NCBI GenBank assembly: GCA_964421315.1
Contig: CAYQXD010000003.1
Location: 1 to 44,776 of the forward strand
Length of the DNA stretch: 44,776 bases
Direction: 5' to 3'
Source of the DNA: an uncultured Thiotrichaceae bacterium
Lineage (GTDB): Bacteria > Pseudomonadota > Gammaproteobacteria > SZUA-229
Shown: one piece after another, positions 2,956-38,523 of the stretch
Layout: every line of letters begins with the position of its first letter
Numbering within the stretch: the first letter of the stretch is position 1
The notes under the pieces: model-generated
The model's input: only the letters and a program-made list of their open reading frames with translations
What the model was told of the DNA's origin: nothing
Database searches by the model: none
Position numbers and translations under genes: made by a program

Positions 2956-4273
2956 CTAAACCATATCAAACAGTTCGAAGTGGATGTGACCCTGCTGCAC
3001 TCGCAGGGCATGAAGTCCCTGTTGCACGGCATCACTCATGGGTTTAGGACCACACAGGAAATACTCATACTCTCTTGTTTCATCCGGTAGAACTTTTTTC
3101 AACAACTGCGGGGTGATAAAACCCGACTCACCTTGCCAGCCGCCTGGTGGTTGTTTTAATACATGTATCAACTGCAGGTTCAGGCGTTGCTTCAGCGACT
3201 CCAGCTCTTCTCTGAAAATCACATCATCCCAGCAGTCGCTGCCATAAAGAAACCACAGTGGGCGATGTTCATGTCGATCCGCCAGAGTATGCAACATGCT
3301 TATAATAGGTGCAGCACCTATACCACCGGCGATGAACACAAAACCCGGCGCGTGCAGGTGCCGGTCTACACTGAAAACGCCGTGAGGACCATCCAGGTAG
3401 GCGATTTCACCAGGCTGAGTATTCTTAATGGTGCGGGTGAAGTCTCCCAGTTCCTTGATGGTAAACGTCAGTTGATCCTGGCGTGCGGCACTGGAAGAAA
3501 AGGAGAAAGGGTGCTCCTTGATGCGCCAGGGGGATTCGCGCAAGGTCAGCCAGGCAAACTGACCGGGTTTAAAGCATGCCTTCATGACCATCCGGCTCCA
3601 GTGCCAGGGTCCAGCTGTTGCCACGCTCCTGCCTGACCTCACTCACTCGATAAGGTCTACCGGACATATGCCAGGGTTTGATCAGTCGCAGGTAGACAAT
3701 CAGCAACAGCCAGAACAGCGTGTATCCTGTCCACAACCAACGTTTGGCGGGCGCATCAATGTAATAACCCACGCCTTCAATATGCCCCAGCGCCAGCAGG
3801 AAGGCTGTCACTGCCAAACCAATATGCAGCATGCGCCATTCATCATAATGAATACGCAGTTTTTTACGCCACAGTGAAGTGAAAATAAGCAGCGCGAATA
3901 GCAGTAGCGCGATACGACCGGCAGTCATGTACCACGGCGCCTGTAAGGGATTGATGTCCCCCAGTGCATCGGCATTGTCGATACGTATGATAGCAAAATG
4001 CAAAAAAATGAAAGTGAACGCCATCACCGCCAGATAACGGTGAAAATAGTAAATGATGTCAACACCAAAAGGTGCACTGGCACGGCGAAAACGGGCAGTG
4101 ATAAAAAACTGTACACCTACCATGGCCATGCCGGCAAAACCCAGCGCCATGGAGAAGTCCCACCAGAAACCGGAACCGGGAGGCACTTCACCCATCTGCA
4201 ATATTGCCAGCGGTGCCAGTACCAGTATCAGGTAGACGCTAATCCAGAAAAAAGTCGATAACAGTATTTTCAT
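2956..4273 (-). pseudogene. Ferric-reductase-like transmembrane domain + FAD/NAD(P)-binding (FNR-like) oxidoreductase, split by a 1-nt frameshift near 3570-3580
   Basis: ORF 3569-4273 encodes a multi-helix His-containing membrane domain and the start of the FAD barrel (RPYRVSEVRQERGNSWTLALEPDGHEGM). ORF 2956-3642 continues from FKPGQFAWLTL with HPFSFSS and FIAGGIGAAPIISML motifs. The two frames overlap at ggcatgctttaaaccc. Confidence 0.7.
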
Positions 4274-4390
4274 GCGTTAACCCGAAAATTTCATAACAGT
4301 GAATATTGTGTCCATGTCATTAAGTTAACAATGCTTAAACTGCCTTGTCATCTCCAGCCTTTGGTTCATTAACGGTACGTCCCTGTACCA

Positions 4391-4457
4391 CTACTCGACC
4401 GTAGGGAGGAATCTTATTGTATGAGAATCAAGATCTCTCACATTCGTTCGAGATGAC
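4391..4457. repeat. Degenerate copy (A) of the ~69-bp TCTCGACC...GGGAGAGATCT palindromic element
   Basis: ctactcgaccgtagggaggaatct / loop / agatctctcacattcgttcgagatgac. The outer and inner arm segments match copy B at 25501-25569. The middle of the right arm has diverged. Confidence 0.6.
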
Positions 4458-4460
4458 AGT

Positions 4461-4544: not shown

Positions 4545-5552
4545 TTATTCACCCTCATATGCCCCCTTTCTTGCCAGACTATTTAATCTAGCGCGAGTCA
4601 ACAGAGCCTGTTGCGTTTTTACATCATTTTCTGCTTTGCCCTGCCAGGCAAACAGGGCGGGTTGTTGTAAGGCGCGTCCATAGGAAATACTGAGCTGCCA
4701 TGGCGCATTCTCGCCCAGCCGGTTGATGGCATTGAGGTTGCGCGTGGCTTCTTCCGGGCCTTGTCCACCAGAGAGAAAGTTAATACTGGGCACGGCTGCA
4801 GGTACCGTTCGGCGGAGAATTTTGAGTGTTTCGCTGGCCACTTCTTCCGGGGCTGCGGTGCGTAAGTCACTACCGGGTACAATCATATTGGGCTTGAGTA
4901 TCATGTGTTCCAGGCTAACATGATGCTGGTGCAAGGCATGAAAAACGGAGTGCAACACATTTTCGGTGACTTCTGCACAACGACTTATATCGTGACGACC
5001 ATCCATCAATACTTCCGGCTCAACAATAGGAACAATGCCTGCAGCCTGACAGACGGCGGCATAACGTGCCAGCATTTCTGCATTGGCATGAAGCCCTAAA
5101 GCGGTAGGATTTGTATCGCTGATAGCATACACCTCACGCCATTTTGCAAAGCGTGCACCTTGTGCCTTGTATGTTTCAAGTCTTTCTGCCAGACCATCCA
5201 GACCGTAGGTAATGGAATCACCCGGTGCACCGGGTAACGACCCTTTGCCTTTATCAACTTTGATACCCGGAACAATGCCCTGTTGCCAGGCCAATTCTGC
5301 TAACGGCATGCCATCACTGGATTTTTGAGCCAATGTTTCTTCAAACAGTATGACACCTGATATGTATTGCCCAAGATCAGCTGTACTCAATAATAGACTT
5401 CTATAAAATCGACGATTTTCCTCTGTGGACTCGACATTGATCGCTGCAAGACGCTTTGCAATAGTTGGCGAGCTTTCATCCATTGCCAGAATACCGCGTG
5501 TTTTATCAACCATATCATTAATAGTTTGTTGTAGTTCAGTTGTCGTACTCAT
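4545..5552 (-). CDS. fba: Class I fructose-bisphosphate aldolase
   Basis: 335 aa. GILAMDESSPTIAKRL, RFYRSLLLST, FEETL, GIKVDKG and LKPNMI are typical of class I (Schiff-base) aldolases. Confidence 0.9.
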   Translation of the reverse strand: MSTTTELQQTINDMVDKTRGILAMDESSPTIAKRLAAINVESTEENRRFYRSLLLSTADLGQYISGVILFEETLAQKSSDGMPLAELAWQQGIVPGIKVDKGKGSLPGAPGDSITYGLDGLAERLETYKAQGARFAKWREVYAISDTNPTALGLHANAEMLARYAAVCQAAGIVPIVEPEVLMDGRHDISRCAEVTENVLHSVFHALHQHHVSLEHMILKPNMIVPGSDLRTAAPEEVASETLKILRRTVPAAVPSINFLSGGQGPEEATRNLNAINRLGENAPWQLSISYGRALQQPALFAWQGKAENDVKTQQALLTRARLNSLARKGAYEGE

Positions 5553-5666: not shown

Positions 5667-6770
5667 TTACGCTTTCCAATGAGCCTGGCTGTGTTCTTCA
5701 CGCATAGCCTTCTCAATTGAGATCAACTCCATAATATTGTCCATATTTATAATACCAACCAGCCGACCGGTTTCGGTTACAGAGAGCAATCGACACTTAC
5801 AGCGTTGCAAACGCTGCAATACTTTTTCCAGTGGCTCATCAATGTCAGCACTTTCAATGCCACGTTCCATGCAGTCCTGTACACGAGTTTGTTCACCATG
5901 TTCCTGTAATCCCTGTAGCAGATTATCCTGCGTGAGGACACCAACTATATCCGTTTCATTCATTACCGGGAAGTCTTTCTGACTGCTGCCTAGCGTCAGT
6001 TTAATGGCACGGCTCAAATAATCATCAGGTGATAGTATCTCAAAATCAGTCAACATCGCGCGACCTGCTGTCATGCCTTTCAAGGTCGATTTAACCTCTT
6101 CCGTTGCCGCTTCACCAGCCGCACCGATCCACACGAACAAAGCAATAAAGATGAGAAAGGGATTATATAATAAACCCAGAAAACCCAGCCATAAAGCCAG
6201 ACCCTGCCCTACTTTGGCGGCAACCTGTGTGGCTTTATTATGGTTCATACGCATCGCCAGCACAGCTCGCAACACACGACCGCCATCCATGGGGAAGGCC
6301 GGGATCAGATTAAACACGGCAAGCATAATATTAATCAGCATCAGGCGCTCTGCAAAGGGCCCATCAATAAGGCTAAGCTGATCAATTGGCACCATTGTAT
6401 TGCTAACAACAAGCCATAACCACAAACCAAATGCAATCACGACATTAACTGCCGGTCCCGCTAACGCCACAGCTATTTCCTGTTTAGGGTCATCGGGCAT
6501 GCTCTCCATACTGGCAACACCACCGATAGGTAACAGTGTAATGCGCAGGGTACGGATGCCATAACGCCGTGCCGTCAGCGCATGCCCATACTCATGCAGT
6601 ACCACGCAGACAAATAATGCCAGAATAAAACCAATGCCACTTAAAACAGTGGTCAGATTTCCTTCCACTAACCAAAAGCTCAAACCAATCCATGCGATGA
6701 GTATAAAAAAAGTAGCATGGACGTAGACATCTATACCGGCAAGCCGAACCAGTTTCAGGGACCATTTCAT
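5667..6770 (-). CDS. Site-2 protease family (M50) zinc metalloprotease with a C-terminal CBS pair
   Basis: HEYGH zinc motif, NLIPAFPMDGGRVLR motif, multiple TM segments, and a CBS-like C-terminal region. Confidence 0.85.
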   Translation of the reverse strand: MKWSLKLVRLAGIDVYVHATFFILIAWIGLSFWLVEGNLTTVLSGIGFILALFVCVVLHEYGHALTARRYGIRTLRITLLPIGGVASMESMPDDPKQEIAVALAGPAVNVVIAFGLWLWLVVSNTMVPIDQLSLIDGPFAERLMLINIMLAVFNLIPAFPMDGGRVLRAVLAMRMNHNKATQVAAKVGQGLALWLGFLGLLYNPFLIFIALFVWIGAAGEAATEEVKSTLKGMTAGRAMLTDFEILSPDDYLSRAIKLTLGSSQKDFPVMNETDIVGVLTQDNLLQGLQEHGEQTRVQDCMERGIESADIDEPLEKVLQRLQRCKCRLLSVTETGRLVGIINMDNIMELISIEKAMREEHSQAHWKA

Positions 6771-6773
6771 GTT

Positions 6774-7304
6774 TTACTGCCTCGCCACTTCTCGACGCAG
6801 ACGCAACTTCTGCTCTGGCGTAACCCGCGCAAAGACAGCAGTACTGGTGGCAGCTATAATCAATTCAGCATCAGACATGACTTCCAGTTCTCTACCCTGC
6901 AATACCTGCGGCAGAGTACCGTCATTTGAGTCTTGACTAAGGTCATCATCGAGACCAATCTGACTGGCAATAGCGGCAGCGGTAATAGCGTGATCGCCGG
7001 TAATCATTTTGACTCTAATACCCGCGGTCTGGCAGGCACGAACTGCCTGTATCGCTTCTTCACGAGGAGGATCGATCATTGCCTGCGGTCCATTTGCCCA
7101 GTTAAAATATTTGGAGCCATTATTAGTGGTCAGGGTATAACTGCCCGGCTGCTGCTGATCATTAATGCCCTGCGGCAATTGTTCAACCGAGGTGATTTCA
7201 TCATAAATAATGCTTTCATGACGAACTTGCGGAGCAATACAGGTATAACCTTTAGCCTGTAAATTATCCAGCAAATGTTGTAACTGATCTGTTTGAAAAA
7301 ACAC
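6774..7304 (-). pseudogene. Chimeric relic ORF: N-terminal ~75 aa of an AsrA/HydB-like Fe-S oxidoreductase fused in-frame to an internal P-domain fragment of a second P-type ATPase
   Basis: Residues 76-170 ([38 protein letters not shown]...VFARVTPEQKLRL) parallel residues of the intact ATPase at 9996-12752 ([38 protein letters not shown]...). The fragment lacks the DKTGT and GDGVNDAPAL motifs. The N-terminal part (GYTCIAPQVRHESIIYDEITSVEQLPQG) is unrelated. Confidence 0.7.
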
Positions 7305-7437
7305 TATAGCCGTTCTCCGTCAGTATCAATGCCAGCAAGTTAAACATAAAATGAAGCTATGCCATATTGAGGTATGTCATACTGAGCGGGTCAATTTCAG
7401 TAATTTAATCTAGTCCGCAAAACACGCAAAAAAATAT

Positions 7438-7473
7438 AACATATTGGTGACACAAAACATATTGGTGACACAA
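7438..7473. repeat. Perfect 18-bp tandem direct repeat x2 (aacatattggtgacacaa)
   Basis: Read directly at 7438-7455 and 7456-7473. The core gtgaca recurs inverted (tgtcac) at 7548-7553 inside the predicted -35. Confidence 0.85.
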
Positions 7474-18801: not shown

Positions 18802-20240
18802 GCTGTGCTACCTGCAAAAGGAAAACCGATATCCATCAATGCCAGCATCCAGGGAGCAAAAAAGCCCAGAGCGATAGCAAGCAATGCCATAACCAATGCC
18901 GTCCATTCCATCCTTCTGGGTACTGCCCTGGACTCATGGAGCAAATCAGACTGAGTAAAAGCAAAACCAATTACTTTAAACACATATGCGCCAGTCAGCA
19001 ATCCACCAACAATCAGCATGATGCCCCACCACCATTGACCTGAACCGATAGCAGCTTCCAGTAACAACCATTTTCCAATAAATCCACCACTGGGTGGCAG
19101 CCCCATAAGGCTGACTCCCGCCAGCGCAAAGGCACTAAGAGTCAACGGTAAATGCCGCGCCACGCGATCAAGATCGGCAATACGATCATGACCACCGTAA
19201 AACAGGATATTACCCGCAGCCATGAACATCGCGGTCTTGGCGACCGCATGGACTAATAGCAGATAAAACGCAGCCTTCCAGCCGATAATGCTGGCCAGCG
19301 GAAACGCCAGAAACAGATAACCGACCTGCACCACAGTCGAATAAGCGACCAGCAATTTAAGCCGTGTCTGACGCAGTGCCTGCACTCCACCCCACAGTAC
19401 TGCAGTCGCACCGAGTAGACCCAGTAACTGAGCCGGTGCCACAGAAGTCATCGGAAAAACATCCAGCCACAGACGCAACAGAATATAAAATGAGGCTTTT
19501 ACCACCAGTGCCGACAACAGCGCACTCACGGGTGCCGGGGCACTGGAATGCGCAGCAGGCAACCAGAAATGCAGAGGGAACAGCGCGGTCTTGAGCAACA
19601 GGCCGGCAGTCATCAAGCCTATGGCTGCCCACACCGCCGGTGTTGACTCTACCCGCTGCGCCAATATCACAATATCGACACTGCCAACACTGTGGTAAAG
19701 CAGAGCAACACCCATAAGATAAAACAATGAACCCAACAGGCTAACCAGCAGATAGCGCATGGCTGCAGTTAAAGCATCAGCACCACCAGACAATGCCACC
19801 AGTGCCACTGCTGCCAGAGCCATCAGTTCCAGCGTGACGTAAAGGTTGAAGATGTCGGCAGAGAGAAACAGGGCATTTAACGCCGCCCACAGGAACATCC
19901 ACAGCGGCCAGAAATGTTTTGCCCTGTCCGGTTGAAAGTAACTGCTAGAATAAATGCTGACAGCCAGACCCACGACAGCAGTCACTATCAGCATTAGCAG
20001 GCTCAAACCATCAGCATAAAGATCAATGCCCAGAGGGGCATCCCAGCCGCCGATGGCGTAGCGTTGTGCGCCTTGCGTTACCATCTGCGCACTCAGTCCA
20101 GCGACGCTGATAACCGTTGCCAATGCGGTAAACAGTGCCAACTGCACACTGTTCCGAGGCCATAAAAAGCAGCTCATCACAGCGACTAATGGCAGTAAAA
20201 TAACCACTACTACCCAGGGTATATCTAGTATTACCTGCAC
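18798..20240 (-). CDS. Mrp/Mnh subunit D-like (NuoN/M family) antiporter subunit
   Basis: 480 aa with YVTLELMALA (TM5 Glu) and LLLKTALFPLHFWLPAAHSSAPAP. Confidence 0.8.
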   Translation of the reverse strand: MQVILDIPWVVVVILLPLVAVMSCFLWPRNSVQLALFTALATVISVAGLSAQMVTQGAQRYAIGGWDAPLGIDLYADGLSLLMLIVTAVVGLAVSIYSSSYFQPDRAKHFWPLWMFLWAALNALFLSADIFNLYVTLELMALAAVALVALSGGADALTAAMRYLLVSLLGSLFYLMGVALLYHSVGSVDIVILAQRVESTPAVWAAIGLMTAGLLLKTALFPLHFWLPAAHSSAPAPVSALLSALVVKASFYILLRLWLDVFPMTSVAPAQLLGLLGATAVLWGGVQALRQTRLKLLVAYSTVVQVGYLFLAFPLASIIGWKAAFYLLLVHAVAKTAMFMAAGNILFYGGHDRIADLDRVARHLPLTLSAFALAGVSLMGLPPSGGFIGKWLLLEAAIGSGQWWWGIMLIVGGLLTGAYVFKVIGFAFTQSDLLHESRAVPRRMEWTALVMALLAIALGFFAPWMLALMDIGFPFAGSTA

Positions 20241-20297
20241 TATTCTAACCTTAAAAAACCAGTTGAATCGTAGCGAGGATGGCTAAGATGCTGAAGG

Positions 20298-20376
20298 TTA
20301 TGGTTTTTTCTGGGTGTTTTGGCTTTGCTCATAGTCACTCTACGGGTGAAGTCAAAACACCCAGAAAAAACCATAA
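20298..20376. repeat. Perfect 24-bp inverted repeat with a 31-nt loop, between mnhC and the first D-like gene
   Basis: ttatggttttttctgggtgttttg (20298-20321) is the exact reverse complement of 20353-20376. Confidence 0.85.
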
Positions 20377-20387
20377 GATTTAGTGTA

Positions 20388-20762
20388 TTAGACATACGCA
20401 GTAGGTTTAACTGATTTTTTAAGGTTTAACGACTCTTTTGCTAATGGCTCTGCAGGCAAGGACTCATCATCAAGTTCGGCACGACCCGTTTTGGCTTTGA
20501 CTCGCAACATCAACGCCAGCGCCAGCGCGGTGGCCGATACCGCTACCACAATGCCGGTAATCACCATGGCATGTGGTACAGCATCGGGTGTTGCACCTTC
20601 GGTGCGAGCTGCCAGTGCAACTAATACCAGGAATACGCCACTGCCCATAATATTAAGGCTAAGAATTTTGCGTAACAAATGCGGATAAATAATCAGCGCA
20701 TACAATCCTAGAGAGAACAGACCGACACCAACCAGTGCGTAGAGAAAAGCAGGATTCATCAT
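20388..20762 (-). CDS. mnhC: Mrp/Mnh subunit C (NuoK-like)
   Basis: 124 aa with three TM segments and typical MnhC size. Position is between the B and D subunits. Confidence 0.75.
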   Translation of the reverse strand: MMNPAFLYALVGVGLFSLGLYALIIYPHLLRKILSLNIMGSGVFLVLVALAARTEGATPDAVPHAMVITGIVVAVSATALALALMLRVKAKTGRAELDDESLPAEPLAKESLNLKKSVKPTAYV

Positions 20763-21493
20763 TAACTATGATCTATGGATGCATCTGTGGCTGCATTTGG
20801 CTCACCACCAAGAAATAAAGCCGCCAGGGTAACGCCAATAGACAAGGTGGCGGCAGCTTCAATCAGTAAAATCAGCACAGCGGAAAATTCCGGCGGATAC
20901 TGCAGAAAATTACCCACCAGCAGCATGGATGCCAAACCCACGATAACAAACACCAGCATACCCGCCACCAGAGTAAATCGTAACGGCAAACCCGCTAACT
21001 TTGGCTCAGGACACCAGCCGCTTAGTAGCAACAACACACCCACCGCCGCCAGTACCGAACCGGCCTGAAAAGCACCACCCGGTGCATGTGCACCGACCCA
21101 CAATAGATAACCAGCAACCAGGATGAATATCGGAACCAGCAGGCGCGACAACATATCCAGCACTTCTCCCGGAGGTGACTGCTGTTGTTGCAAGCGGCTT
21201 TGTGTGGTGCCACCAAGCGACCAGACAGCTAACAGTGCCAACAACAACACGCCCAGTTCCAGCAAGGTGTCATACGCCCTGAAATTAAGCAGCACGGCAG
21301 TAACCGGGTTACTGACACCACTGATTTCAAGATTGACGGCTACAGCTGTACTCAACCCTGATGCCTGTGGTGGCAGTGATAACACAGCATACGCCAGCCC
21401 CGCAGTAAAAACACATAACAACACCATCAACAATAATCGAAATGGCAGCAAATGTTTATTGTTCTCAGTTTTCAACTTTGCCTGCCTCGCCAT
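20762..21493 (-). CDS. mnhB: Mrp/Mnh subunit B-like (MbhE-like)
   Basis: NPVTAVLLNFRAYDTLLELGVLL (MnhB domain) and GAHAPGGAFQAGSVLA. The start may lie downstream of 21493. Confidence 0.75.
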   Translation of the reverse strand: MARQAKLKTENNKHLLPFRLLLMVLLCVFTAGLAYAVLSLPPQASGLSTAVAVNLEISGVSNPVTAVLLNFRAYDTLLELGVLLLALLAVWSLGGTTQSRLQQQQSPPGEVLDMLSRLLVPIFILVAGYLLWVGAHAPGGAFQAGSVLAAVGVLLLLSGWCPEPKLAGLPLRFTLVAGMLVFVIVGLASMLLVGNFLQYPPEFSAVLILLIEAAATLSIGVTLAALFLGGEPNAATDASIDHS

Positions 21494-21770
21494 TCTTCTG
21501 GCCTTCTTTCAGGGCTTTTTTCTGCTGCCCATCTGAGCCAAGCCTGGCCAATGTTGCCAACAACAGCGCACCCGTCAGACCTGCACCAATGGTGGCTTCA
21601 GCCAGAGCTACATCCGGCGCATCAAGCCGCACCCAGGCCAGTGCCATCAATAACCCAAAGGCGATAAACAGCACAATAGCGCGGAATAGATCTGGGCTAG
21701 ACAGTGCCTGCCAGGCAAGCCACAGCAGGGTTAAACCTAAAACAGCATCAAATAACAGCAGTAAATTCAT
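21465..21770 (-). CDS. DUF4040/MbhD-like small membrane subunit (equivalent to the C-terminal part of MrpA)
   Basis: 101 aa with three TM segments (APDVALAEATIGAGLTGALLL). Position is between the G and B subunits, as in Mbh-type modules. Confidence 0.6.
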   Translation of the reverse strand: MNLLLLFDAVLGLTLLWLAWQALSSPDLFRAIVLFIAFGLLMALAWVRLDAPDVALAEATIGAGLTGALLLATLARLGSDGQQKKALKEGQKNGEAGKVEN

Positions 21771-21819
21771 CGCTCCTGCGCTCCCCGCCTATACCTGCGT
21801 AGTAGTGCATCCATGCACG

Positions 21820-22119
21820 TCATCGCTTCCACAATTTAATACCTCGTTGCCGTGCCGCTGTAGCAACCAGGTGAGCAACACTGGCTCCAGCAAGCAGTAC
21901 CAATAACCAGATCAACAACAGCTTGCCCACCACTGCCCATGATTCTGCCTGCAAGGCGAGTCCAAGTATTACTAATCCAAGGCCCACGTTATCGGCCTTG
22001 GTTAATGCATGCAGGCGAGTATAAACATCTGGAAAGCGCAACAGACCCACCGTTCCCGCAAGAAAAAATACCGCTCCGGCAATCAACAATACCGCAGTGA
22101 GAAGGTCAGTCATCAACAT
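21820..22119 (-). CDS. mnhG: Mrp/Mnh subunit G
   Basis: GTVGLLRFPDVYTRLHALTKADNVGLG is the MnhG signature. Confidence 0.8.
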   Translation of the reverse strand: MLMTDLLTAVLLIAGAVFFLAGTVGLLRFPDVYTRLHALTKADNVGLGLVILGLALQAESWAVVGKLLLIWLLVLLAGASVAHLVATAARQRGIKLWKR

Positions 22120-22375
22120 GATTCACCACCCAGACACGACGTGCGAAAGCAACGGCTGTTACTACCGCCAACAGTGCAAATACCAGTGCCACATCACGTA
22201 ATGCTGACTGCTCCAGTGCCTGCGCCAATAAAAGTAAACAGGCAACTGCCGTGGTGCCAAATAATTGTGCGGTCAGCATACGGTCTGCGGCTGTGGGGCC
22301 ATGCATAATCCGCCACAACCCCGCTACCAGCGTTAACAGAAGAAAAACGGCTACCCCTAAATACAATGCATTCAC
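22106..22375 (-). CDS. mnhF: Mrp/Mnh subunit F
   Basis: 89 aa with RIMHGPTAADRMLTAQL, typical of MnhF/PhaF. Confidence 0.75.
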   Translation of the reverse strand: MNALYLGVAVFLLLTLVAGLWRIMHGPTAADRMLTAQLFGTTAVACLLLLAQALEQSALRDVALVFALLAVVTAVAFARRVWVVNHVDD

Positions 22376-22388
22376 AGCACTTTACTCC

Positions 22389-22883
22389 TCACTCGATTAA
22401 ATCCATTAACTTCAGTGCAAACACCTGCGCCACATGTTTCTCTACCATGTTCAATTCTGAGGCGAAACCAGCCATTTGGTCGAGTACATGCACATGCAGG
22501 TATTCTGCGTCCAGCTCAGCGCTTAATGTGCCTGGCAGTAAACTCACCACATTTGCCATAAAAACCCGTGGCAGACCCGGCGGTAGCCGCCAGCGGTAAG
22601 CCACTATTTCTGGTGAAATCGGTAGCCGCGGGTGCAACGCTCGCCTGGCGACGTCAATACCACCACACAAAGAACGCCAGAGAAAAAAAGGGATGAATCG
22701 CAATATTCCTGATAAGGATAACGGAATACTCGGCAGCAACAATACGCTGGCAAACGTCGCTAAAACAATCACCGGCACACCAATAAACCAGGAATCTGTC
22801 GCAGTTTCTGTAATCACCCACCATAATATTGCGAACAGGACGATGCGAAAACTGACGGCAGAAAATGTTGTTGAAATTGTCAT
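22389..22883 (-). CDS. mnhE: Mrp/Mnh subunit E
   Basis: 164 aa with VVSLLPGTLSAELDAEYLHVHVLD, an MnhE-like motif. Confidence 0.75.
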   Translation of the reverse strand: MTISTTFSAVSFRIVLFAILWWVITETATDSWFIGVPVIVLATFASVLLLPSIPLSLSGILRFIPFFLWRSLCGGIDVARRALHPRLPISPEIVAYRWRLPPGLPRVFMANVVSLLPGTLSAELDAEYLHVHVLDQMAGFASELNMVEKHVAQVFALKLMDLIE

Positions 22884-22948
22884 AAGCGAGGTAGTCGTTA
22901 TTGCATAAACATGTGCATTGGCAATTGTAGTGTGGGCATGCTTTCACA

Positions 22949-23947
22949 TTAGCAGATACGCGGCAGCGGATCATCTTCCAGCTCTTCGAGTATGCGCTCA
23001 CCACCAATAGCGGTTTCCATTAACACATATGATATTTCTGAATCAATAAAACCGATAATTGCCGCATCTTTGCCTTCCTCAAGCGCTTGCCAGGCTGTCA
23101 GTAGTGCTTGCGATTGCGTCGGTTCCACCACAGCAACCACCCGCCCTTCGCAGGCGAGATACATGGGGTCGTAACCCAGCATGTCACATACAGACTGCAC
23201 CGGATCACGCACTGGCAGTTTGCTCTCTGACAATCTGACCCCCATAGAAGTTGCACGAAATAATTCCGAGCAAACAGTGGCAATGCCACCCCGGGTTGGG
23301 TCACGCATAAAACGCAGACCTTTATGTTTCATCGCAGCGGTTGTTAGATTTAATACGCTGGCCGCATCCGATTGAATATCGCCACGCAAACCAAATTCTT
23401 CTCTCGCCAACATTACCGCAATGCCGTGATCGCCAACCGGACCACTGACAATAATGGTATCTCCATGTTGAATATTTTTCATCGACATGACATGGCCGGC
23501 ACGAATACCAACACCGGTGGTGGCAAGATACAACCCCCCGCCTTCACCACGGCGTAAAACTTTGGTGTCGCCACAAACCACTTTGACACCAATTTCTGCT
23601 GCGGTTTCTGCCAACGTTTTTATAATGCGCTCCAGGGTGGCAATTTCCAGACCTTCTTCGATGAAGGCATTCAGGCTTAAATACTTTGGGATAGCACCGG
23701 CCACCGCAAGGTCATTGGTGGTGCCATGCACTGCAAGTGAACCAATGTTGCCGCCGGGGAATTCTAGCGGCTGCACGGTAAAACCATCGGTAGTAAACAT
23801 TACATCACCATCAAGTATTATCGGCACGGCATCGGCTTGCACATCTAAATCCGGATTAGCCAGGTGACGTGCAAAAATCTCTTCGATAAGTTCGCGCATG
23901 TAACGACCGCCATTGCCGTGTGCCAGTGAGATGTGTGTGTCTTGCAT
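22949..23947 (-). CDS. hypE: [NiFe] hydrogenase maturation protein HypE (carbamoyl dehydratase)
   Basis: 332 aa with an AIR-synthase-like fold and the C-terminal PRIC motif. Confidence 0.95.
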   Translation of the reverse strand: MQDTHISLAHGNGGRYMRELIEEIFARHLANPDLDVQADAVPIILDGDVMFTTDGFTVQPLEFPGGNIGSLAVHGTTNDLAVAGAIPKYLSLNAFIEEGLEIATLERIIKTLAETAAEIGVKVVCGDTKVLRRGEGGGLYLATTGVGIRAGHVMSMKNIQHGDTIIVSGPVGDHGIAVMLAREEFGLRGDIQSDAASVLNLTTAAMKHKGLRFMRDPTRGGIATVCSELFRATSMGVRLSESKLPVRDPVQSVCDMLGYDPMYLACEGRVVAVVEPTQSQALLTAWQALEEGKDAAIIGFIDSEISYVLMETAIGGERILEELEDDPLPRIC

Positions 23948-23973
23948 TTTTATTTACCTGCTTGTTTTTTTAC

Positions 23974-24061
23974 CACAGAGAACACAGAGGGCACAGAGAA
24001 AAATTGGGTTATAGTAATTTGCGCGAAGCACAAACAATAAAAAAACTCTGTGTTCTCTGTG
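23974..24061. repeat. Palindromic element with perfect 16-bp arms (cacagagaacacagag) between hypF and hypE
   Basis: The left arm at 23974-23989 is the exact reverse complement of the right arm at 24046-24061. The left side also has the internal reiteration cacagag-aacacagag-ggcacagag. Confidence 0.85.
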
Positions 24062-24078
24062 TCTGTAATAAAAGATTT

Positions 24079-26517
24079 TCATCTATTAAACCCATATTCC
24101 ATAACCTGGCCGAAACTAATACCCGCATCATTAACTGGTATCAACTCAGGCAGACAAACATCAAAACCTTCGTCCTCCAATAAAACCATGGCTCGCTCTG
24201 TTAATACCCGGTTCTGAAACACGCCACCGGAAAAACTCACTGTATTCACCCCGTGTTTGTCACGAATAATTTTTGCCTGCTGCAACAGCGTGTGCGCCAA
24301 CGATTGATGAAACAAAGAAGCACGCTTGCTAAGGCTTAATGTAGAATCTAACATAACAGCAATTAATGGCTGCCAGTTGCTTATCAATATATTCTCATTC
24401 TCTGCTAACTCCAGTTCTATATAGTCACTGGATTTTTCGCACAATGCTTCAAGTTCCATCGGACCCTGCCCCTCAAAACTAGCCATCTTGCGGATACCGG
24501 TTAAGGCAGCAGCAGCATCAAACAGACGACCAACCGAAGTGGTTTGTGGTGCATTAATTTTTCGTAACCATGCCTGCCGTAATACTGAATGCAACAGTGG
24601 GTCTTTTTCGGGAATATCGTCATAGTTCTGCCCCACTTCCCAGCATAATGCTGCAGCGCTTCGCCAGGGTTGTCGTCCGGCTTTATCACCACCGGGCAGA
24701 TTAAAACTTCGCATACTGGCCACGCGTAACCATTCACCCGGTTTACCAAGAAACGTTTCGCCACCCCACAGCATGCCATCTTCACCGTAACCAACACCAT
24801 CCCAGGTGAATACTATAATCGCATCGTCAGCCTTTATAACTTGCTGGCATTCGTAATAAGCGGCAGAAGCATGAGCATGGTGGTGAAACACCGTTTGCAC
24901 AGGAAGGTTCTGTTTGTTTGCCCAACGTGTGGTTGTATAACCAGGGTGTGAATCGCAAATTAAACGTTTTGCTTTAACACCATAAAGTTTTTGTAAATCA
25001 TTAATGGTATTTTCAAAAACGTCGACACTGCGAGCCGTGTCCATTTCGCCTATATGCGGTGAAATAATGGCGCGGTTTTTCCATGCCAGGGTGATGGTGT
25101 TTTTCATCTGTGCACCGACGGCAAGAACAGCATGTGGCAATTCAAACGGTAAAGTCAGTTCTATTGGCGCACAGCCACGACCGGTACGAATGGGTCGTGG
25201 TTTACCGGCAATGGTTCGATACACTGGATCATCCGCCGGTCGCTGTATCGCTCGGTTATGATGCAAACAGGCATCAGCCACATGAGCCAGTCGTTTTTCA
25301 ACATCACTGTTTTTTATTAAAACCGGCTCGCCACTTATGTTTGCCGAAGTAACCACCAGTGGCCTGGCAAAATCATTTAACAGCAGATGATGCAACGGAC
25401 TATATGGCAACATCATACCCACTTCATCTAATCCCGGTGCAATCTGATCGGATAAAACAGAATGAGAATTTTGCATAACCGAGGAAACATTCAATACACT
25501 GTCATCTCGACCAGCGGGAGAGATCTTGTTCCGCCGTTGCTTAAGATCTCTCCCGCTGGTCGAGATAACAATATCTGAAAATTCACTTTGTTCAGAGTCT
25601 TTATTTTTAGCCACCTGTAAAATGGGCCTGGCAGCTTGTAACAAAAATATTTTATCATTTTCACTTAATGTTAGTGATTTTTCTGCAAGCTCAAATGGAT
25701 TATTAAGCGGTGCCGGGAACATAATCGCCAGCGGTTTATCAGGTCGAGGTTTTTTCTTCCGTAAACAGACAACCGCTTCTGTATTTGTTGCATCACACAT
25801 CAGGTGATAACCACCGATTCCTTTTACCGCAACGACTTTGCCATCACGCAACAGGTTTACCGTCTTTTTCAGCGCTGCTTTATTTTCCTTGATTACGATC
25901 TCGTCCATATGAAAAACAAGTGAAGGCCCACACACTGGACAGGCAACAGGCTCAGCGTGAAAACGCCGATTAAACGGATCTTCATATTCAACTAAACAGG
26001 TCGGACATAATTCAAAATCGGCCATAGTGGTATTGGCACGATCATAAGGCAGGCTTTTAATCAAAGTGTAACGCGGCCCGCACTGAGTGCAGTTGATAAA
26101 CGGGTATTGATAACGCCGGTCTGATGGGTCGTTTAATTCTGCAAGACAGTCATCACAGAGGGTAAGGTCGTTTGGAACACTAATGTTAGCCTGTTCCTGA
26201 TGTTCGCTGTCAAGAATACAAAAAGTTTTTAACTCACCAGCGGCAGTTTGTTTATCTGATTCGAGTTTGGGTTTTGCTAATGGTGGTTTTTTATCGAACA
26301 GGTCTAAAACAAAGCTATCAAGATTTTGAGACTGACCCTGAACAAAAATTTCGACAGTACCGACACAGTTTTTTACCCAGCCAGTAAGTTTATTCTCGAT
26401 GGCAAGCCGATAAACAAAAGGCCGAAAACCAACACCCTGCACCTGTCCGGATAATACAATCTGCCTGGCAGAGGTTTCAGGTTTTGTTTTCTGTTTACTA
26501 TTTAAATAAATAGCCAT
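24079..26517 (-). CDS. hypF: [NiFe] hydrogenase maturation carbamoyltransferase HypF, carrying an in-frame palindromic-element insertion
   Basis: 812 aa with an acylphosphatase domain (VQGVGFRPFVYRLA), two zinc-finger pairs (CDDC..CTQCGPRY, CPTC..CPVCGP), a YrdC-like domain and a Kae1-like domain. Confidence 0.95.
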   Translation of the reverse strand: MAIYLNSKQKTKPETSARQIVLSGQVQGVGFRPFVYRLAIENKLTGWVKNCVGTVEIFVQGQSQNLDSFVLDLFDKKPPLAKPKLESDKQTAAGELKTFCILDSEHQEQANISVPNDLTLCDDCLAELNDPSDRRYQYPFINCTQCGPRYTLIKSLPYDRANTTMADFELCPTCLVEYEDPFNRRFHAEPVACPVCGPSLVFHMDEIVIKENKAALKKTVNLLRDGKVVAVKGIGGYHLMCDATNTEAVVCLRKKKPRPDKPLAIMFPAPLNNPFELAEKSLTLSENDKIFLLQAARPILQVAKNKDSEQSEFSDIVISTSGRDLKQRRNKISPAGRDDSVLNVSSVMQNSHSVLSDQIAPGLDEVGMMLPYSPLHHLLLNDFARPLVVTSANISGEPVLIKNSDVEKRLAHVADACLHHNRAIQRPADDPVYRTIAGKPRPIRTGRGCAPIELTLPFELPHAVLAVGAQMKNTITLAWKNRAIISPHIGEMDTARSVDVFENTINDLQKLYGVKAKRLICDSHPGYTTTRWANKQNLPVQTVFHHHAHASAAYYECQQVIKADDAIIVFTWDGVGYGEDGMLWGGETFLGKPGEWLRVASMRSFNLPGGDKAGRQPWRSAAALCWEVGQNYDDIPEKDPLLHSVLRQAWLRKINAPQTTSVGRLFDAAAALTGIRKMASFEGQGPMELEALCEKSSDYIELELAENENILISNWQPLIAVMLDSTLSLSKRASLFHQSLAHTLLQQAKIIRDKHGVNTVSFSGGVFQNRVLTERAMVLLEDEGFDVCLPELIPVNDAGISFGQVMEYGFNR
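25501..25569. mobile_element. Perfect copy (B) of the ~69-bp palindromic element, inserted in-frame in hypF (MITE-like)
   Basis: atctcgaccagcgggagagatct (25504-25526) is the exact reverse complement of 25544-25566, with a 17-nt loop. It translates as ISTSGRDLKQRRNKISPAGRD within HypF. Confidence 0.8.
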
Positions 26518-26559
26518 GCCCTATTAATAAGAAACTGTTTTCCAAAAAAAAACTATTTT

Positions 26560-27657
26560 TCAAGCCACCTCACGCATCCCACCTGCCCACCAGATTCGGC
26601 AGGCACCCTCATCCGACACCATACACGGCCCTATTGGGTTTCTGGGCACACAGGCTTTACCAAACAGCCGGCACTCATTGGGATAGATTTTACCCAGTAC
26701 CACCTGCGCGCAATCACAACCCGGTGGCATTTTCCCGGCGCGTTTGCGGGCATCATCGGCATAAGATGGAAATTGTTTTCTGGCATCGTGATGATTGTAA
26801 ACTTTATCCAGCATGTAACCCGATGCAGGAATAATACCCACACCACGCCAGTTGGCATCGTACACGTTCATTGCTTTGTTTAGATGTGACTGTGCAGATT
26901 TATTGCCGCCAGCTTTTACCAGCTCCGGGTAGCAGTTATCCAGAAAATAACGCTTCTCATTAAGCTGCCTCAAGGTGGAATACATTGCTGCCAGCAGGCT
27001 TTCAGGTTTAAAACCGGCGACCGCTGCCGGGATGTTGTGTTCATCGACAACAAATTTCCATTCCTCCGACCCCATAATGGTTGCTACATGACCAGGTGCA
27101 ATCAAAGCATCAAATCCGGGCTCACCAGATTCCAGCAACATGGCCACTGCCGGCCAGGTTAATCGACCGGACAATAGTACCGATAAATTGTCAGGCACGC
27201 CCTCCACCATCATCGCCGCCACCGGTGCGGTGGTGGTTTCAAAACCGGCAGCAAAAAATACTACTGCTTTATCTGGATTTTTTTTTGCAATAATAACTGC
27301 TTCTGTGGGCGAGGCAATCGGCCTTATATCTGCACCCTGAGCTTTGGCCTGCTCCAGTGTTCGTGCTTTGACTTTTGGCACATTAACGGGAACACGCAAC
27401 ATATCACCAAAAGCCACTAGAATAATATCTTCATTCAAAGCCAGTTGAATGGCTTCAAATATATCTTCTTCCGGGCAAATACAGACCGGACAGCCGGGAC
27501 CGGGAACCAGTTCAATATAATCGGGCAATACCTTTCGCAAACCGGCCATGGTTATGGAGCGTTCATGTCCACCACAGACATTCATGATTTTTACCCGGTC
27601 TTTTTTATGCGGCAAAGCGTGAATACGTGCTAGCCATTGTTTTGCACTGATGGTCAT
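26560..27657 (-). CDS. hypD: [NiFe] hydrogenase maturation protein HypD
   Basis: 365 aa with MNVCGGHE, GPGCPVCI and a C-terminal Cys cluster. Confidence 0.95.
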   Translation of the reverse strand: MTISAKQWLARIHALPHKKDRVKIMNVCGGHERSITMAGLRKVLPDYIELVPGPGCPVCICPEEDIFEAIQLALNEDIILVAFGDMLRVPVNVPKVKARTLEQAKAQGADIRPIASPTEAVIIAKKNPDKAVVFFAAGFETTTAPVAAMMVEGVPDNLSVLLSGRLTWPAVAMLLESGEPGFDALIAPGHVATIMGSEEWKFVVDEHNIPAAVAGFKPESLLAAMYSTLRQLNEKRYFLDNCYPELVKAGGNKSAQSHLNKAMNVYDANWRGVGIIPASGYMLDKVYNHHDARKQFPSYADDARKRAGKMPPGCDCAQVVLGKIYPNECRLFGKACVPRNPIGPCMVSDEGACRIWWAGGMREVA

Positions 27658-27659
27658 GA

Positions 27660-28529
27660 CTAGATTCTTTTTCCCTCATCATCATCATGATGATGAGGGT
27701 GATGCGGCTTCTGATGATTATGTCGCCCTGAGATAACTGGATGTTGTTCCAGATAACTCTTGCGACTGTCCCGCTTTTTACTTTCTATGTGCTGCTTAAT
27801 CCAGTCCAGCCATTGCGGCAGGCCTGACTTATCTTTGGCGGAAAGCTCTATTACAGGTGCGGTACTGGCGATATCATGTAAATATTTTTTTGCTCTATCA
27901 GGGCTAAAATCATCAAGCACAGGAAGCAGATCACTTTTACTTATCAGCACTAGATCAGATGTGCGAAACATAACCGGATATTTTGCCGGTTTGTCATCGC
28001 CTTCCGGTACTGATAATAAAGTAACGTTTAAGTGCTGCCCTAAATCAAAACTGGCAGGACAAACCAGGTTGCCAACATTTTCAATAAACACAATATCAAA
28101 TTCAGCAAGATCAAGATTATGCAAGGCCTGGTGAATCATGTGTGCATCCAGATGGCAGGCACTGCCGGTAGTAATCTGAATAGCCTTAACGCCATGTTTG
28201 CGAATGCGCTCAGCATCGTTCTCGGTTTCAAGATCACCTTCAATAACCGCTATTTTAATATTGCTGTTCGATTCCAGGCCAAGTTGCACAATCGTCGCTT
28301 CCAGCAATGCCGTTTTACCAGCGCCGGGTGAAGACATTAAATTAATCGCCAGCACATTAAACGAATCAAAATGCTCGCGATTGTGTTTAGCAGTATGATC
28401 GTTTTCGTGCAACAGACTGCGAAGAACAGTAACAGCCTCTTTACCACTTTCAGTTTTGTGAAGTTTACCGCCAGGGCGAATCAGGCCTTCGTTGCCGTGA
28501 GTTATGTTACATCCGCAGGTGTCGCACAT
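27660..28529 (-). CDS. hypB: [NiFe] hydrogenase nickel-incorporation GTPase HypB
   Basis: An N-terminal CDTCGC metal site, the P-loop SSPGAGKT, and a His-rich C-terminal tail (HNHQKPHHPHHHDDD). Confidence 0.95.
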   Translation of the reverse strand: MCDTCGCNITHGNEGLIRPGGKLHKTESGKEAVTVLRSLLHENDHTAKHNREHFDSFNVLAINLMSSPGAGKTALLEATIVQLGLESNSNIKIAVIEGDLETENDAERIRKHGVKAIQITTGSACHLDAHMIHQALHNLDLAEFDIVFIENVGNLVCPASFDLGQHLNVTLLSVPEGDDKPAKYPVMFRTSDLVLISKSDLLPVLDDFSPDRAKKYLHDIASTAPVIELSAKDKSGLPQWLDWIKQHIESKKRDSRKSYLEQHPVISGRHNHQKPHHPHHHDDDEGKRI

Positions 28530-28567: not shown

Positions 28568-28675
28568 AATGAAAAATGAAAAGTGAAAAATGAAAAATTT
28601 AAAAACTAAAACCGAATATCTGGTACAGGCAGTTTTGCTTATCCATTTTTCACTTTTCACTTTTCATTTTTCATT
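28568..28675. repeat. Palindromic element with 31-nt arms built from TGAAAA(A/G) reiterations, between hypA and hypB
   Basis: aatgaaaaatgaaaagtgaaaaatgaaaaat (28568-28598) pairs with 28645-28675 with one mismatch. The right arm contains the last codons (MKNEK) and the TGA stop of hypA. Confidence 0.85.
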
Positions 28676-36752: not shown

Positions 36753-38324
36753 ATGAAATTTAATATCTCAAAAATGATGCATCCGGCAGTTTATGATCAT
36801 CCGGTTACAAACATACAACTCATCGAAACCCACATTTCCTGGGTAATTCTAACCGGTGACTTTGCCTATAAAATTAAAAAGCCGGTGGACTTTGGTTTTT
36901 TGAATTTTTCTACATTAGAAAAAAGACACTACTTTTGTCAGCAGGAATTAGATCTCAATCGCAAACTGGCACCAGAAATTTATCTTGATGTTGTTGCTAT
37001 CAGCGGCACATTGAATGAGCCTCGACTCTCTGGCAGCAGCACAGTTTTTGAATACGCAGTAAAAATGAAACAGTTCCCGCAATCTGCTCAGCTGGATAAC
37101 ATGCTGGCTGCCGCTGAACTTAAATTAGAACATATGGATGCCATTGCGCATATGACTGCTTATTTTCATCAGTCCACCGATATTGCTAATGAGGCTATGG
37201 ATTATGGCAATAAGGAAACACTTTATCAGCCGGTCGAAGAAAACTTTAAACAGATAAATGAACACCTGGTATCAGAGCTACACACAGATAAACAATATGC
37301 AGATAAACTGACAGTACTTTCACAGTGGAGCAGATCTGAATTAGCTAAACAACAAGCCGTGTTTGCACAACGCAAAGCGGATGGCTTTATTCGTCAATGT
37401 CACGGTGACATGCATTTACGAAATCTGGTCTGGCTGGACAACAAACCAGTGGCATTCGACTGCATCGAATTCAATGACAAATTAAGCTGGATTGATGTAA
37501 TAAGTGAAATCGCATTTTTAATTATGGATTTGCAGCACCGTCAACAACATCAACTGGCCAATCGTTTTTTAAACTGCTACCTTGAGGTCACTGGTGATTA
37601 TGCCGGGTTATCGGTTCTACCCTTCTATCTTTGTTATCGTGCACTGGTTCGCGCCAAAGTAAATGCCTTGCGCGTAGAACAAAAAAACATTACTGACAAA
37701 GAAAAACAACAAACCGATACTGAATTTATGGCTGAATTTGAGTCATACCTTGAACTGGCAAGCAGTTATATAAAACATTCCACTCCAAAATTAATTATTA
37801 CGCGTGGCCTATCTGCCTCAGGAAAAAGTACCGTCTCACAACAGTTAGTTGATACAACAGGAATGCTACGTATTCGTTCAGATGTTGAGCGTAAACGATT
37901 ATTTGAACTTTCCTTAACCACAGGTGCTGCAAACAATATTGATTCTGGAATCTATTCAACACAGGCATCATTGCAAACTTATAAAAAACTAGCTGAGCTT
38001 GCATCTAACATAATCAACGCTGGTTATAGCGTTATCGTTGATGCGGCTTTTTTAAACTATGAGCAACGTCAGCTATTTCAACAACTCGCCAGTCGTTTAG
38101 GTGTTTCTTATATCATCCTGGAAATAACAGCACCTGCTGAGATATTACGACAGCGTATTAAAAAAAGAATACATGATGTTTCAGATGCAGACTTAACAGT
38201 GCTTGAACATCAACTTACACACTGGCAGGATTTGCAAAAAGATGAAGTTAATTCAGCAGTTTCTGTCAATACTACTGGCGTGCTGGATATTAACAAGTTA
38301 ATCAATACGATTAACACAAGATAG
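36753..38324 (+). CDS. Bifunctional aminoglycoside-phosphotransferase-like kinase / P-loop (AAA_33-like) kinase fusion protein
   Basis: The N-terminal APH/choline-kinase-like domain has CHGDMHLRNLVW and FDCIEFND. The C-terminal domain has the Walker A motif GLSASGKST. Confidence 0.75.
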   Translation: MKFNISKMMHPAVYDHPVTNIQLIETHISWVILTGDFAYKIKKPVDFGFLNFSTLEKRHYFCQQELDLNRKLAPEIYLDVVAISGTLNEPRLSGSSTVFEYAVKMKQFPQSAQLDNMLAAAELKLEHMDAIAHMTAYFHQSTDIANEAMDYGNKETLYQPVEENFKQINEHLVSELHTDKQYADKLTVLSQWSRSELAKQQAVFAQRKADGFIRQCHGDMHLRNLVWLDNKPVAFDCIEFNDKLSWIDVISEIAFLIMDLQHRQQHQLANRFLNCYLEVTGDYAGLSVLPFYLCYRALVRAKVNALRVEQKNITDKEKQQTDTEFMAEFESYLELASSYIKHSTPKLIITRGLSASGKSTVSQQLVDTTGMLRIRSDVERKRLFELSLTTGAANNIDSGIYSTQASLQTYKKLAELASNIINAGYSVIVDAAFLNYEQRQLFQQLASRLGVSYIILEITAPAEILRQRIKKRIHDVSDADLTVLEHQLTHWQDLQKDEVNSAVSVNTTGVLDINKLINTINTR

Positions 38325-38360
38325 GAGCTTTGTACGAGCGAGTAAAAACTTAATACCACG

Positions 38361-38418
38361 GTCATCTCGACCTACGGGAGAAATCTAATACCGCAGTGGT
38401 TCAGGATCTCTCCCGTAG
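38361..38418. repeat. Copy (C) of the ~69-bp palindromic element, with the outer right arm truncated
   Basis: gtcatctcgacctacgggagaaatct / loop / atctctcccgtag. The arm triplet TAC/GTA replaces the AGC/GCT of copy B and preserves pairing. Confidence 0.7.
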
Positions 38419-38523
38419 TTCAGTAGGCTGGGGTGAGGTACGTGCCCCAACAGGACACCATAGTGACTTTGTTGGGGCTCATAAAAACATTCACCCCAAC
38501 CTTGTATCAATATTTGGTTTGTA

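Follow-up and report, generated by a model that had tools for sequence, protein, structure and literature searches.

We analyzed a 44,776-nt window (the whole stretch of DNA considered here) of one 52-kb metagenome contig from an uncultured Thiotrichaceae bacterium, and all statements about this genome refer to that 44.8-kb window. Among its genes is an intact hypF, read from the minus strand, encoding an 812-aa protein, and adjoined by hypB, hypD, and hypE genes that are likewise intact. A 71-nt inverted repeat lies inside the hypF coding sequence, in frame (Table 1). Repeat finding gave arms of 28 nt each (25500-25527 and 25543-25570) that were 96% complementary and separated by 15 nt, and a BLAST comparison of the region with itself delimited a perfect 24-nt core (25504-25527 and 25543-25566). 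The palindrome consists of TGTCATCTCGACCAGCGGGAGAGATCTT, the 15-nt spacer, and AAGATCTCTCCCGCTGGTCGAGATAACA, and is read within HypF as V-ISTSGRDLKQRRNKISPAGRD-D; four of its six reading frames are free of stop codons. The 22-nt arm yielded no chance matches across 100 dinucleotide-preserving shuffles of the window, and the palindrome folded as single-stranded DNA (ssDNA) at -29.7 kcal/mol (z = -10.9). A preliminary description of this DNA had placed 23-bp arms and a 17-nt loop at 25501-25569, which is correct to 1-2 bases, and had called the element stop-free and in frame, as frame analysis bore out, with the 812-aa open reading frame (ORF) reading through it.

The segment that sets this hypF apart from its closest relative extends beyond the palindrome. 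A base-by-base alignment with the closest orthologous gene (L121; 88% nucleotide identity) contained a single gap of exactly 135 nt, in which the 71-nt palindrome is flanked by 35 nt and 29 nt; two of the six frames of this whole unit are open. The extra segment had been taken to be lineage-specific in the preliminary description, and that part stands, while its length of 69 bp is revised to 135 nt by this alignment. The flank and arm together could be aligned over 104 nt (73% identity) with one of two further copies of the element in the window, designated copy 2 (25453-25556 against 38312-38415). Because the 35-nt flank is thus homologous to the neighborhood of copy 2, the repeat unit in this genome is longer than the palindrome. 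Neither flank had a convincing match in 200 fetched loci, and within the window the 35-nt flank recurred only at copy 2. The ends of the repeat unit given here are therefore approximate.

Table 1 Features of the hypF insertion and its further copies in the window.
Feature	Position	Strand	Description
hypF coding sequence, 812 aa	24079..26517	-	Acylphosphatase, two Zn-finger, YrdC-like, and Kae1-like domains (Pfam)
Insertion	25465..25599	-	135 nt = 45 codons, residues 307-351: DSEQSEFSDIVISTSGRDLKQRRNKISPAGRDDSVLNVSSVMQNS; boundaries ambiguous by 1-2 nt
35-nt flank, part of insertion	25465..25499		Homologous to copy 2 flank
29-nt flank, part of insertion	25571..25599		Imperfect pairing with 35-nt flank, lengthens hairpin; weakly similar to 38464-38473
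Core palindrome	25500..25570		Two inverted TGTC-tagged hairpin repeats, heads outward, spacer 15 nt (25528-25542); same layout in 57 complete elements of other genomes
Left arm (sense hairpin motif)	25500..25529	+	TGTC-ATCTC-GA-CC-AGC-GG-GA-GAGAT-CTTG
Right arm (sense hairpin motif)	25541..25570	-	TGTT-ATCTC-GA-CC-AGC-GG-GA-GAGAT-CTTA
Copy 2	38360..38426	+	Intergenic, 36 nt past stop codon of ORF 36753..38324
Copy 3	about 4388..4458	-	Intergenic, between minus-strand ORFs 3569..4273 and 4545..5552

Homology searches with HypF returned thousands of homologues, the best of them 62-84% identical (BLASTP local alignments) and drawn from Gammaproteobacteria and Thiotrichaceae metagenome-assembled genomes (MAGs) and from metagenomes; homologues in the PDB were 3VTH, 3TSP, and 4G9I. 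In an alignment of 63 sequences, the protein was 64-88% identical to 62 orthologues and kept every family-invariant column. The insert was absent from the 60 closest aligned HypF proteins, most of which read ...VxK-NxxSx-LSEQ-IAPGLNEVG... at this position. The insertion site varies in length, with 0-16 extra residues among aligned orthologues, a few of which carry 4-16 unrelated residues. None of the 62 orthologues in the alignment (A2) had a comparable private insertion, P0002 having a 10-aa segment only, and the arm-derived peptide motif occurred in none of the best 120 HypF matches scanned. Alignment with orthologues had been suggested earlier as a check on lineage specificity, and its outcome agrees with a lineage-specific insert: the segment is missing from the best 120 HypF proteins and from the L121 gene with its 88% nucleotide identity, which speaks against an ancient HypF segment. 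A strain with an empty hypF site was also sought, and the sole contig found, Ga0310711_100105 of JGI metagenome 3300029216 (L202; 52,001 nt), was 100% identical to the window over 18949-27947; an exact look-up of the HypF product had nevertheless given no record.

Matches to PF01300 (Sua5/YciO/YrdC) lie on both sides of the insert, with residues 222-269 aligned to profile positions 2-50 and residues 347-446 to positions 80-178, and the Kae1-like domain begins only at residue 462, past the insert. The insertion is therefore within the YrdC-like domain and does not fall in the linker that leads to the Kae1-like domain, where the preliminary description had put it. In an alignment with Caldanaerobacter HypF (3VTH), residues 305 and 355 of the query correspond to 289 and 293, so that the site is a turn of ~3 residues in the crystal structure. 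An AlphaFold model built from 63 sequences was of moderate quality (mean predicted local distance difference test score, pLDDT, 74; predicted template modeling score 0.54), and we therefore used it solely for the very low confidence of the insert, where pLDDT fell below 50 at residues 309-349 and there was no secondary structure at 309-343. This low confidence suggests that the insert is probably a disordered loop. A Pfam search with the 45-aa insert found no family. Judging from the sequence, the element is most likely translated as part of HypF and tolerated there, and the enzyme would retain its activity despite the insert.

Both further copies in the window (Table 1) had been noted before as related intergenic copies, and both were recovered, each with one decayed arm. 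Copy 2 has TA in both arms where the hypF copy has AG/CT, a mismatch in the outer stem, and a decayed right head. In copy 3 the left arm, TGTCATCTCGAACGAATGTGAGAGATCTTG, is intact and the right arm is decayed; its left-arm sequence equals that of arms from several phyla (L006, L007, L060, L089, L102, and L109). Since the hypF copy is nearly perfect and the other two each have one decayed arm, the comparison suggests that the hypF copy is the youngest of the three. The head of its right arm is GTT, not GTC, a change that is synonymous within hypF (Val). Directly after copy 2, at 38430-38500, there are short inverted repeats (GGGGTGAGG...CCCCAACA...TGTTGGGG...CACCCC) that may be a small repeat or a terminator; this stretch stands between copy 2 and a short segment resembling the 29-nt flank of the hypF copy.

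We scanned one genome per species for hairpin arms of this type with a loose pattern, TCATCTCGANC-N3-5-GNGAGANATCT, and found at least 120 matching stretches in genome contigs, compared with about a dozen chance matches by our own rough estimate for the 19 specified bases. Among the matches listed, record titles spanned more than 15 phyla, and included Gamma-, Alpha-, and Deltaproteobacteria, Bacteroidota (Pontibacter, Pedobacter, Mucilaginibacter, Tenacibaculum, and others), Legionella, Luteimonas, Thiotrichaceae, Desulfobulbus, Myxococcota, Riflebacteria, Chlamydiae, Planctomycetota, Kiritimatiellia, Chloroflexota, Nitrospirota, Patescibacteria, Omnitrophota, Chlorobium, and one Bathyarchaeota (archaeal) MAG. 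MAG titles may be wrong, and cultured isolates of several phyla are among the arm-bearing records. A lineage-specific element family is not borne out by an arm design present in genome records of many phyla. All listed arm matches had the prefix (T/C)GTCAT in common. The hypF arm recurred, identical over 25-29 nt, in Gammaproteobacteria MAGs and unclassified metagenome contigs (L036, L102, L122, L124, and L125) and in Pontibacter ruber (L108), a cultured member of the Bacteroidota; such identity between Gammaproteobacteria and Bacteroidota suggests either horizontal spread of a nuclease-repeat pair or a very strong constraint on the sequence. In IMG/VR viral contigs the arm pattern occurred in only 9 stretches (L203-L211), against at least 120 in the genome collection; the repeats are mainly chromosomal and not chiefly a phage feature.

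From these loci we extracted 57 complete head-out inverted dimers with spacers of 5-101 nt; single arms and same-orientation arrays were also common. In three loci, same-orientation single arms recurred with a period of 123-141 nt (L005 1403-1565, L013 3297-3600, and L066 487-634), a tandem arrangement unlike that of the inverted dimers. The arm is built of a (C/T)GTC tag, a 5-bp stem beginning AT-YYC, GA, a 2-bp stem, a 3-nt loop, the other strand of the 2-bp stem, GA, GRR-AT closing the outer stem, and a short tail. The two arms of one dimer were often unlike inside (GC-AGC-GC against CC-TTC-GG, or ATCTC...GAGAT against ATTTC...GAAAT), each keeping its own hairpin, and this difference in inner stem and loop points to selection on each arm rather than on arm-to-arm pairing. 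We examined covariation in arms beside the nuclease genes described below, collected with a pattern that fixed only GTCAT, both GA dinucleotides, and the final AT and did not require complementarity. The outer triplets were perfectly complementary in 42 of 44 unique arms and comprised seven triplet types, while shuffled partners gave a mean of 8.9 and a maximum of 16; the inner 2-nt pairs were complementary in 32 of the 44 (shuffled mean 12.3). Loops of 3 nt were mostly GAA, GTA, or GCA, with AGC in the hypF arm. In the arm the two GA dinucleotides lie opposite one another, where tandem sheared G.A pairing is feasible, and loops of the C-GNA-G type are known to make DNA mini-hairpins of unusual stability; the nearest-neighbor model gives no credit for this.

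The arms are closely associated with genes for small GIY-YIG nucleases. The nuclease SsnA, a 94-aa protein with a single GIY-YIG domain, binds the NTS hairpin (an extended dRS3, CGTCATTCCCGCGMAVGCGGGAATCYRG) only as ssDNA and cuts a few nucleotides upstream, and it has thousands of homologues, whose ssn genes are typically flanked by Ssn-related motifs (SRMs; Chenal et al. 2025, PMC11893778). In the gammaproteobacterial MAG L102, a 92-aa ORF (4606-4881) has the GIY-YIG signature (Pfam PF01541, E = 3e-15); an arm 21 nt upstream of it is identical over 29 nt to the left arm in hypF, and a complete dimer lies downstream. Compared with NCBIfam, this nuclease matched nothing above the cut-off, and its only match in the PDB was weak (the UPF0213 GIY-YIG protein 1ZG2). 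A homologue in Tenacibaculum sp. A30 (L095, 3328-3618; E = 1.5e-16) is embedded in CGTC-GA hairpins. At the same locus, an ORF for the transcription-repair coupling factor mfd (4051-7395) adjoins the Ssn-like gene and contains one arm in frame at about residue 313, which fits a published remark that intragenic CGTC and GTAG repeats are frequent in DNA-repair genes. Around the arms of 120 loci, no ORF family of at least 100 aa recurred within 1.5 kb; at that cut-off the ~90-aa nuclease was missed, and it surfaced once small ORFs were examined.

With an alignment of three Ssn-like proteins we fetched 80 metagenomic nuclease loci, and an arm lay within 400 nt of the nuclease gene in 76 of them and on both sides in 56. 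These loci contained 311 arms in 174.5 kb, compared with 20 in reversed-sequence controls. Arms with the hypF-arm core GTCATCTCGACCAGCGGGAGAGAT accompanied three of the four nearest nuclease homologues (L122, L124, and L125; 81-83% identical), while the closest of all (L123, 87%) had other arm types. Beside more distant nucleases (~52-56% identical; L159 and L166) we found canonical Neisseria-type NTS arms, GTCATTCC-CGCGCAGGCG-GGAAT. The presence of identical arms beside Ssn-like genes elsewhere indicates that the arms in hypF are the cognate hairpin type of one Ssn-like clade. By analogy with those loci, an Ssn nuclease may be encoded in this genome or act on the hypF copy.

A family of tagged repeats that resemble these arms has been described by Di Nocera, De Gregorio and Rocco (2013). 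Arm-like oligonucleotide strings, when sought in the literature, led only to unrelated primers. CGTC-tagged repetitive extragenic palindromes (REPs) have an unpaired CGTC tag, often TGTC, a stem that starts with A/T, and a short tail, and are mostly arranged as inverted dimers; their stems of 8-9 bp are fully paired and their loops are of 4-5 nt, and they were found in five phyla, mainly in Alphaproteobacteria (PMC3733652). Neisseria dRS3 and Rickettsia RPE-4 and RPE-6 are counted among them, and no dedicated transposase is known for these repeats (PMC3733652). We propose that the hypF element is probably a dimer of inverted TGTC-tagged hairpins of the CGTC-REP/SRM superfamily, the core of a 135-bp non-autonomous repeat that was inserted into a turn of the YrdC-like domain and is translated and tolerated there. 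The 135-bp repeat would have entered this length-variable turn in this lineage only. The 5′ arm of each DNA strand would then fold into a 5-bp stem, tandem G.A pairs, a 2-bp stem, and a 3-nt loop, with the unpaired (C/T)GTC tag before it, so that each strand, as ssDNA, would offer one sense hairpin to an Ssn-type nuclease, if the organism has one. The element would be transcribed and translated with hypF, giving the protein, conserved in all other respects, a further loop of 45 residues. Had copies landed in hypF out of frame, they would have disappeared, so that survivorship would explain the in-frame, stop-free state of the copy we see. Such repeats may reach new sites by processes tied to an Ssn nuclease or to ssDNA metabolism.

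Several observations weigh against this proposal. The published SRM pattern, HGTCWYN(0-2)YYVSBRHN(0-5)WNVSBRGN(0-2)RNCYNB, matched neither the hypF arms nor copy 2, while an NTS control did match; it fails on the hypF arms because the two G.A positions break its interior. The arm also departs from CGTC-tagged REPs: its stem has an AT...AT start and 9 positions, two of which are the conserved G.A/A.G mismatches (5 bp, G.A/A.G, 2 bp), around a 3-nt loop, as opposed to full pairing and a loop of 4-5 nt. Nearest-neighbor folding of a single arm gave only -3.2 to -3.5 kcal/mol (z = -0.4 and -1.7), like shuffled sequences, compared with -8.9 kcal/mol for a canonical NTS single hairpin folded in the same way, so that the case for the small hairpin rests on covariation and not on predicted energy. 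In the near-perfect homodimer in hypF, moreover, the long hairpin formed by the whole palindrome (at the predicted -29.7 kcal/mol) should outcompete the two small ones. The changed GTT head of one arm is a detail that does not fit the simple picture. The ends of the insertion lie 35 and 29 nt beyond the palindrome, whereas the published SsnA cut is 3 nt upstream of the tag, and the origin of the extra 64 nt is explained only in part, through homology with copy 2. No ssn homologue was found by tblastn in the 44.8-kb window, and we know of no experiment that shows mobilization of these repeats by Ssn nucleases.

A stronger version of the same idea is that the 135-nt unit is currently active, being moved via ssDNA by a GIY-YIG Ssn nuclease, perhaps with a preference for ACA(G/A)(A/G)AT-like sites. 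This sequence is the junction sequence of both the hypF copy and copy 2; we are aware of no characterized precedent for transposition or homing by a GIY-YIG Ssn nuclease via ssDNA, and we consider current activity unlikely.

Of the interpretations that dispense with a nuclease-associated repeat, the one adopted in the preliminary description was a MITE-like mobile insertion (MITE, miniature inverted-repeat transposable element). Its core, a lineage-specific insertion of a dispersed repeat, is retained here. A classical MITE, that is, a deletion derivative of a DDE insertion sequence with TGT...ACA terminal inverted repeats recognized in trans and a target-site duplication, would account for inverted arms that end in TGT...ACA, like many DDE transposon ends, and for an element that is short, dispersed, and non-coding; Beggiatoaceae genomes are moreover rich in MITEs, one of which lies in hupL (PMC4853749). 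Neither the hypF junctions nor the 57 complete elements, however, have target-site duplications or direct repeats. The gene that is flanked is a GIY-YIG gene and not a transposase gene, and no ORF of at least 100 aa recurred around 120 arm loci. Single arms and same-orientation arrays are common, and the maintenance of arm-internal hairpins by covariation, in left and right arms that are often unlike and not complementary to each other, is unexpected for simple protein-binding terminal repeats. A classical MITE is a very unlikely source. The Thiomargarita and Beggiatoaceae MITEs themselves (PMC4853749), with 10-bp direct repeats or TATA ends, could be set apart from the hypF element by their description, the paper containing no sequences. 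Still less probable is a GTAG-type REPIN, a REP doublet mobilized by a single-copy RAYT (Y1 HUH transposase). REPINs have the same architecture of two inverted 5′-tagged hairpins, with singlets and clusters, and occasionally lie in frame in genes (PMC3733652, PMC6006769), but the tag here is (C/T)GTC and not GT[AG]G, no tyrosine transposase flanked by CGTC repeats was found in an earlier study (PMC3733652), and the arm sequence is nearly identical across phyla where REPIN sequences are lineage-specific. The flanked gene in 76 of the 80 loci is that of the GIY-YIG nuclease, although no dedicated search for Y1 proteins was made.

The element might instead act mainly at the RNA level in hypF, by giving RNase III a site, by pausing translation, or by regulating hypF-hypE expression, or might be removed from the transcript. 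Folded as hypF-sense RNA, 25440-25620 gave -71.9 kcal/mol (z = -7.6) with a stem of ~50 bp, ~37 of them uninterrupted pairs, from ~25483 to ~25590, and REPs affect mRNA stability (background in PMC3733652 and PMC6006769), so that an incidental effect of the element on hypF mRNA stability may exist. As its main role this seems quite improbable. Rfam had no match at gathering score anywhere in the window, and at relaxed threshold the element drew nothing but generic hairpins such as microRNA precursors; the conserved structure of the family is a small hairpin per arm on both strands, a DNA-type symmetry, and not the long hairpin; and SsnA is inactive on RNA (PMC11893778). Removal, which the preliminary description had offered as an alternative, found no support, in that the segment has no intron-like or ribozyme features and no Pfam match for its 45 residues, and an open frame would be unnecessary if it were removed. 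An intein or a self-splicing intron was also considered and rejected: 45 residues are far too few for an intein, and neither Pfam nor, at gathering score, Rfam recognized the segment. The source being a metagenome, and palindromes being able to arise from chimeric assemblies, the insertion could also be an assembly artefact, and the only other record, identical over 9 kb, is not independent; alternatively, it could be an inactivating lesion in a decaying hypF pseudogene. Set against this are an insert of exactly 45 codons without a stop, which is well formed and belongs to a family represented twice more on this contig, family-invariant HypF residues that are all kept, and intact hypB, hypD, and hypE genes, and we regard an artefact or pseudogene as extremely unlikely.

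The window contains other repeats. Directly upstream of the start of the minus-strand hypB (28529), 7-nt arrays of AATGAAA (x4.4, 28568-28598) and its complement CATTTTT (x4.6, 28644-28675) form an inverted pair, in a style that recalls the TAACTGA heptamer arrays of Beggiatoaceae (PMC4679880). A perfect tandem 15-mer, CTGTTCAACCCGCTT (x2.6), lies at the end of the window (44737-44775), and a perfect tandem 18-mer, AACATATTGGTGACACAA (x2), at 7438-7473.

If the proposed reading of the hypF element as a translated hairpin dimer holds, the locus is a clear natural case in which a tagged hairpin repeat is translated within a conserved multi-domain enzyme, and it marks a turn in the YrdC-like domain where HypF tolerates 45 additional residues. 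The G.A-containing CGTC/SRM variant, together with its Ssn-like clade, would widen the known range of nuclease-repeat pairs, and repeats of this kind probably give rise to spurious or "decorated" protein predictions in metagenomes. The current understanding of hydrogenase maturation is unchanged. Were the unit in fact actively moved by an Ssn nuclease, it would create a nuclease-sensitive site in single-stranded hyp DNA that could limit or shape horizontal transfer of hydrogenase maturation genes. The finding is worth a note for those who work on these repeats and nucleases and should not surprise the field.

Compared with described systems, the element is closest to CGTC-tagged REPs and SRMs. 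With the former it shares the unpaired TGTC tag (25500-25503; TGTT in the other arm), a stem that starts with A then T and is closed by A-T at its 3′ end, the short tail, the predominance of inverted dimers (57 head-out), the lack of any known dedicated transposase, and occasional in-frame intragenic copies. The many published in-frame intragenic copies of CGTC-tagged REPs include dimers that encode VIPAKAGI...EIPAFAGMT and, in a glycyl-tRNA synthetase, VVPAKAGT...EIPASAGMT (PMC3733652); the hypF element, with VISTSGRDL...KISPAGRDD, follows the peptide pattern VI-x-G-x ... x-I-P-x-G-x-[TD] in the same frame and arm order. It differs in that the hypF-type variant is distributed much more widely than the five published phyla. 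The head HGTCWY (TGTCAT in hypF) and tail RNCYNB (ATCTTG in hypF) around a short hairpin are those of SRMs, as is the occurrence, seen in other genomes, of many copies in both orientations that flank a gene for a ~90-aa single-domain GIY-YIG protein. Unlike SRMs, the hypF-type arm has G.A/A.G at two conserved positions and a loop of 3 nt, mostly GNA, and in hypF the motif is a head-out dimer in a 135-nt unit within a coding sequence.

Resemblances to two other groups are more general. The Rickettsia palindromic elements (RPEs), RPE-1 and others, are, as summarized in PMC10969869 (Ogata et al. 2000), palindromes of ~100-150 bp in frame in unrelated housekeeping genes, whose added peptide the surface of the protein presumably tolerates. 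As described there, RPE-1 belongs to another sequence family, is restricted to Rickettsia, and has a conserved encoded peptide, whereas the hypF-type family has one in-frame copy here and most of its members are intergenic. With the REPIN/RAYT system the element shares tagged hairpin doublets that can form one long hairpin, a non-autonomous nature, singlets as decay products, and a link to a single-copy nuclease gene itself flanked by repeats; it differs from that system's GTAG tag, HUH/Y1 fold (here GIY-YIG), and lineage-specific sequences. Because the arms depart from both the SRM pattern and the published loop and stem of CGTC-tagged REPs, we file them as a variant within the CGTC-REP/SRM superfamily. 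A tagged hairpin repeat in frame in a housekeeping gene is already known from repeats of the RPE-4/6 and dRS3 type; what is new is the host gene and the site, a G.A variant that escapes the published pattern, and the occurrence of this arm type in many phyla, closely tied to Ssn-like genes.

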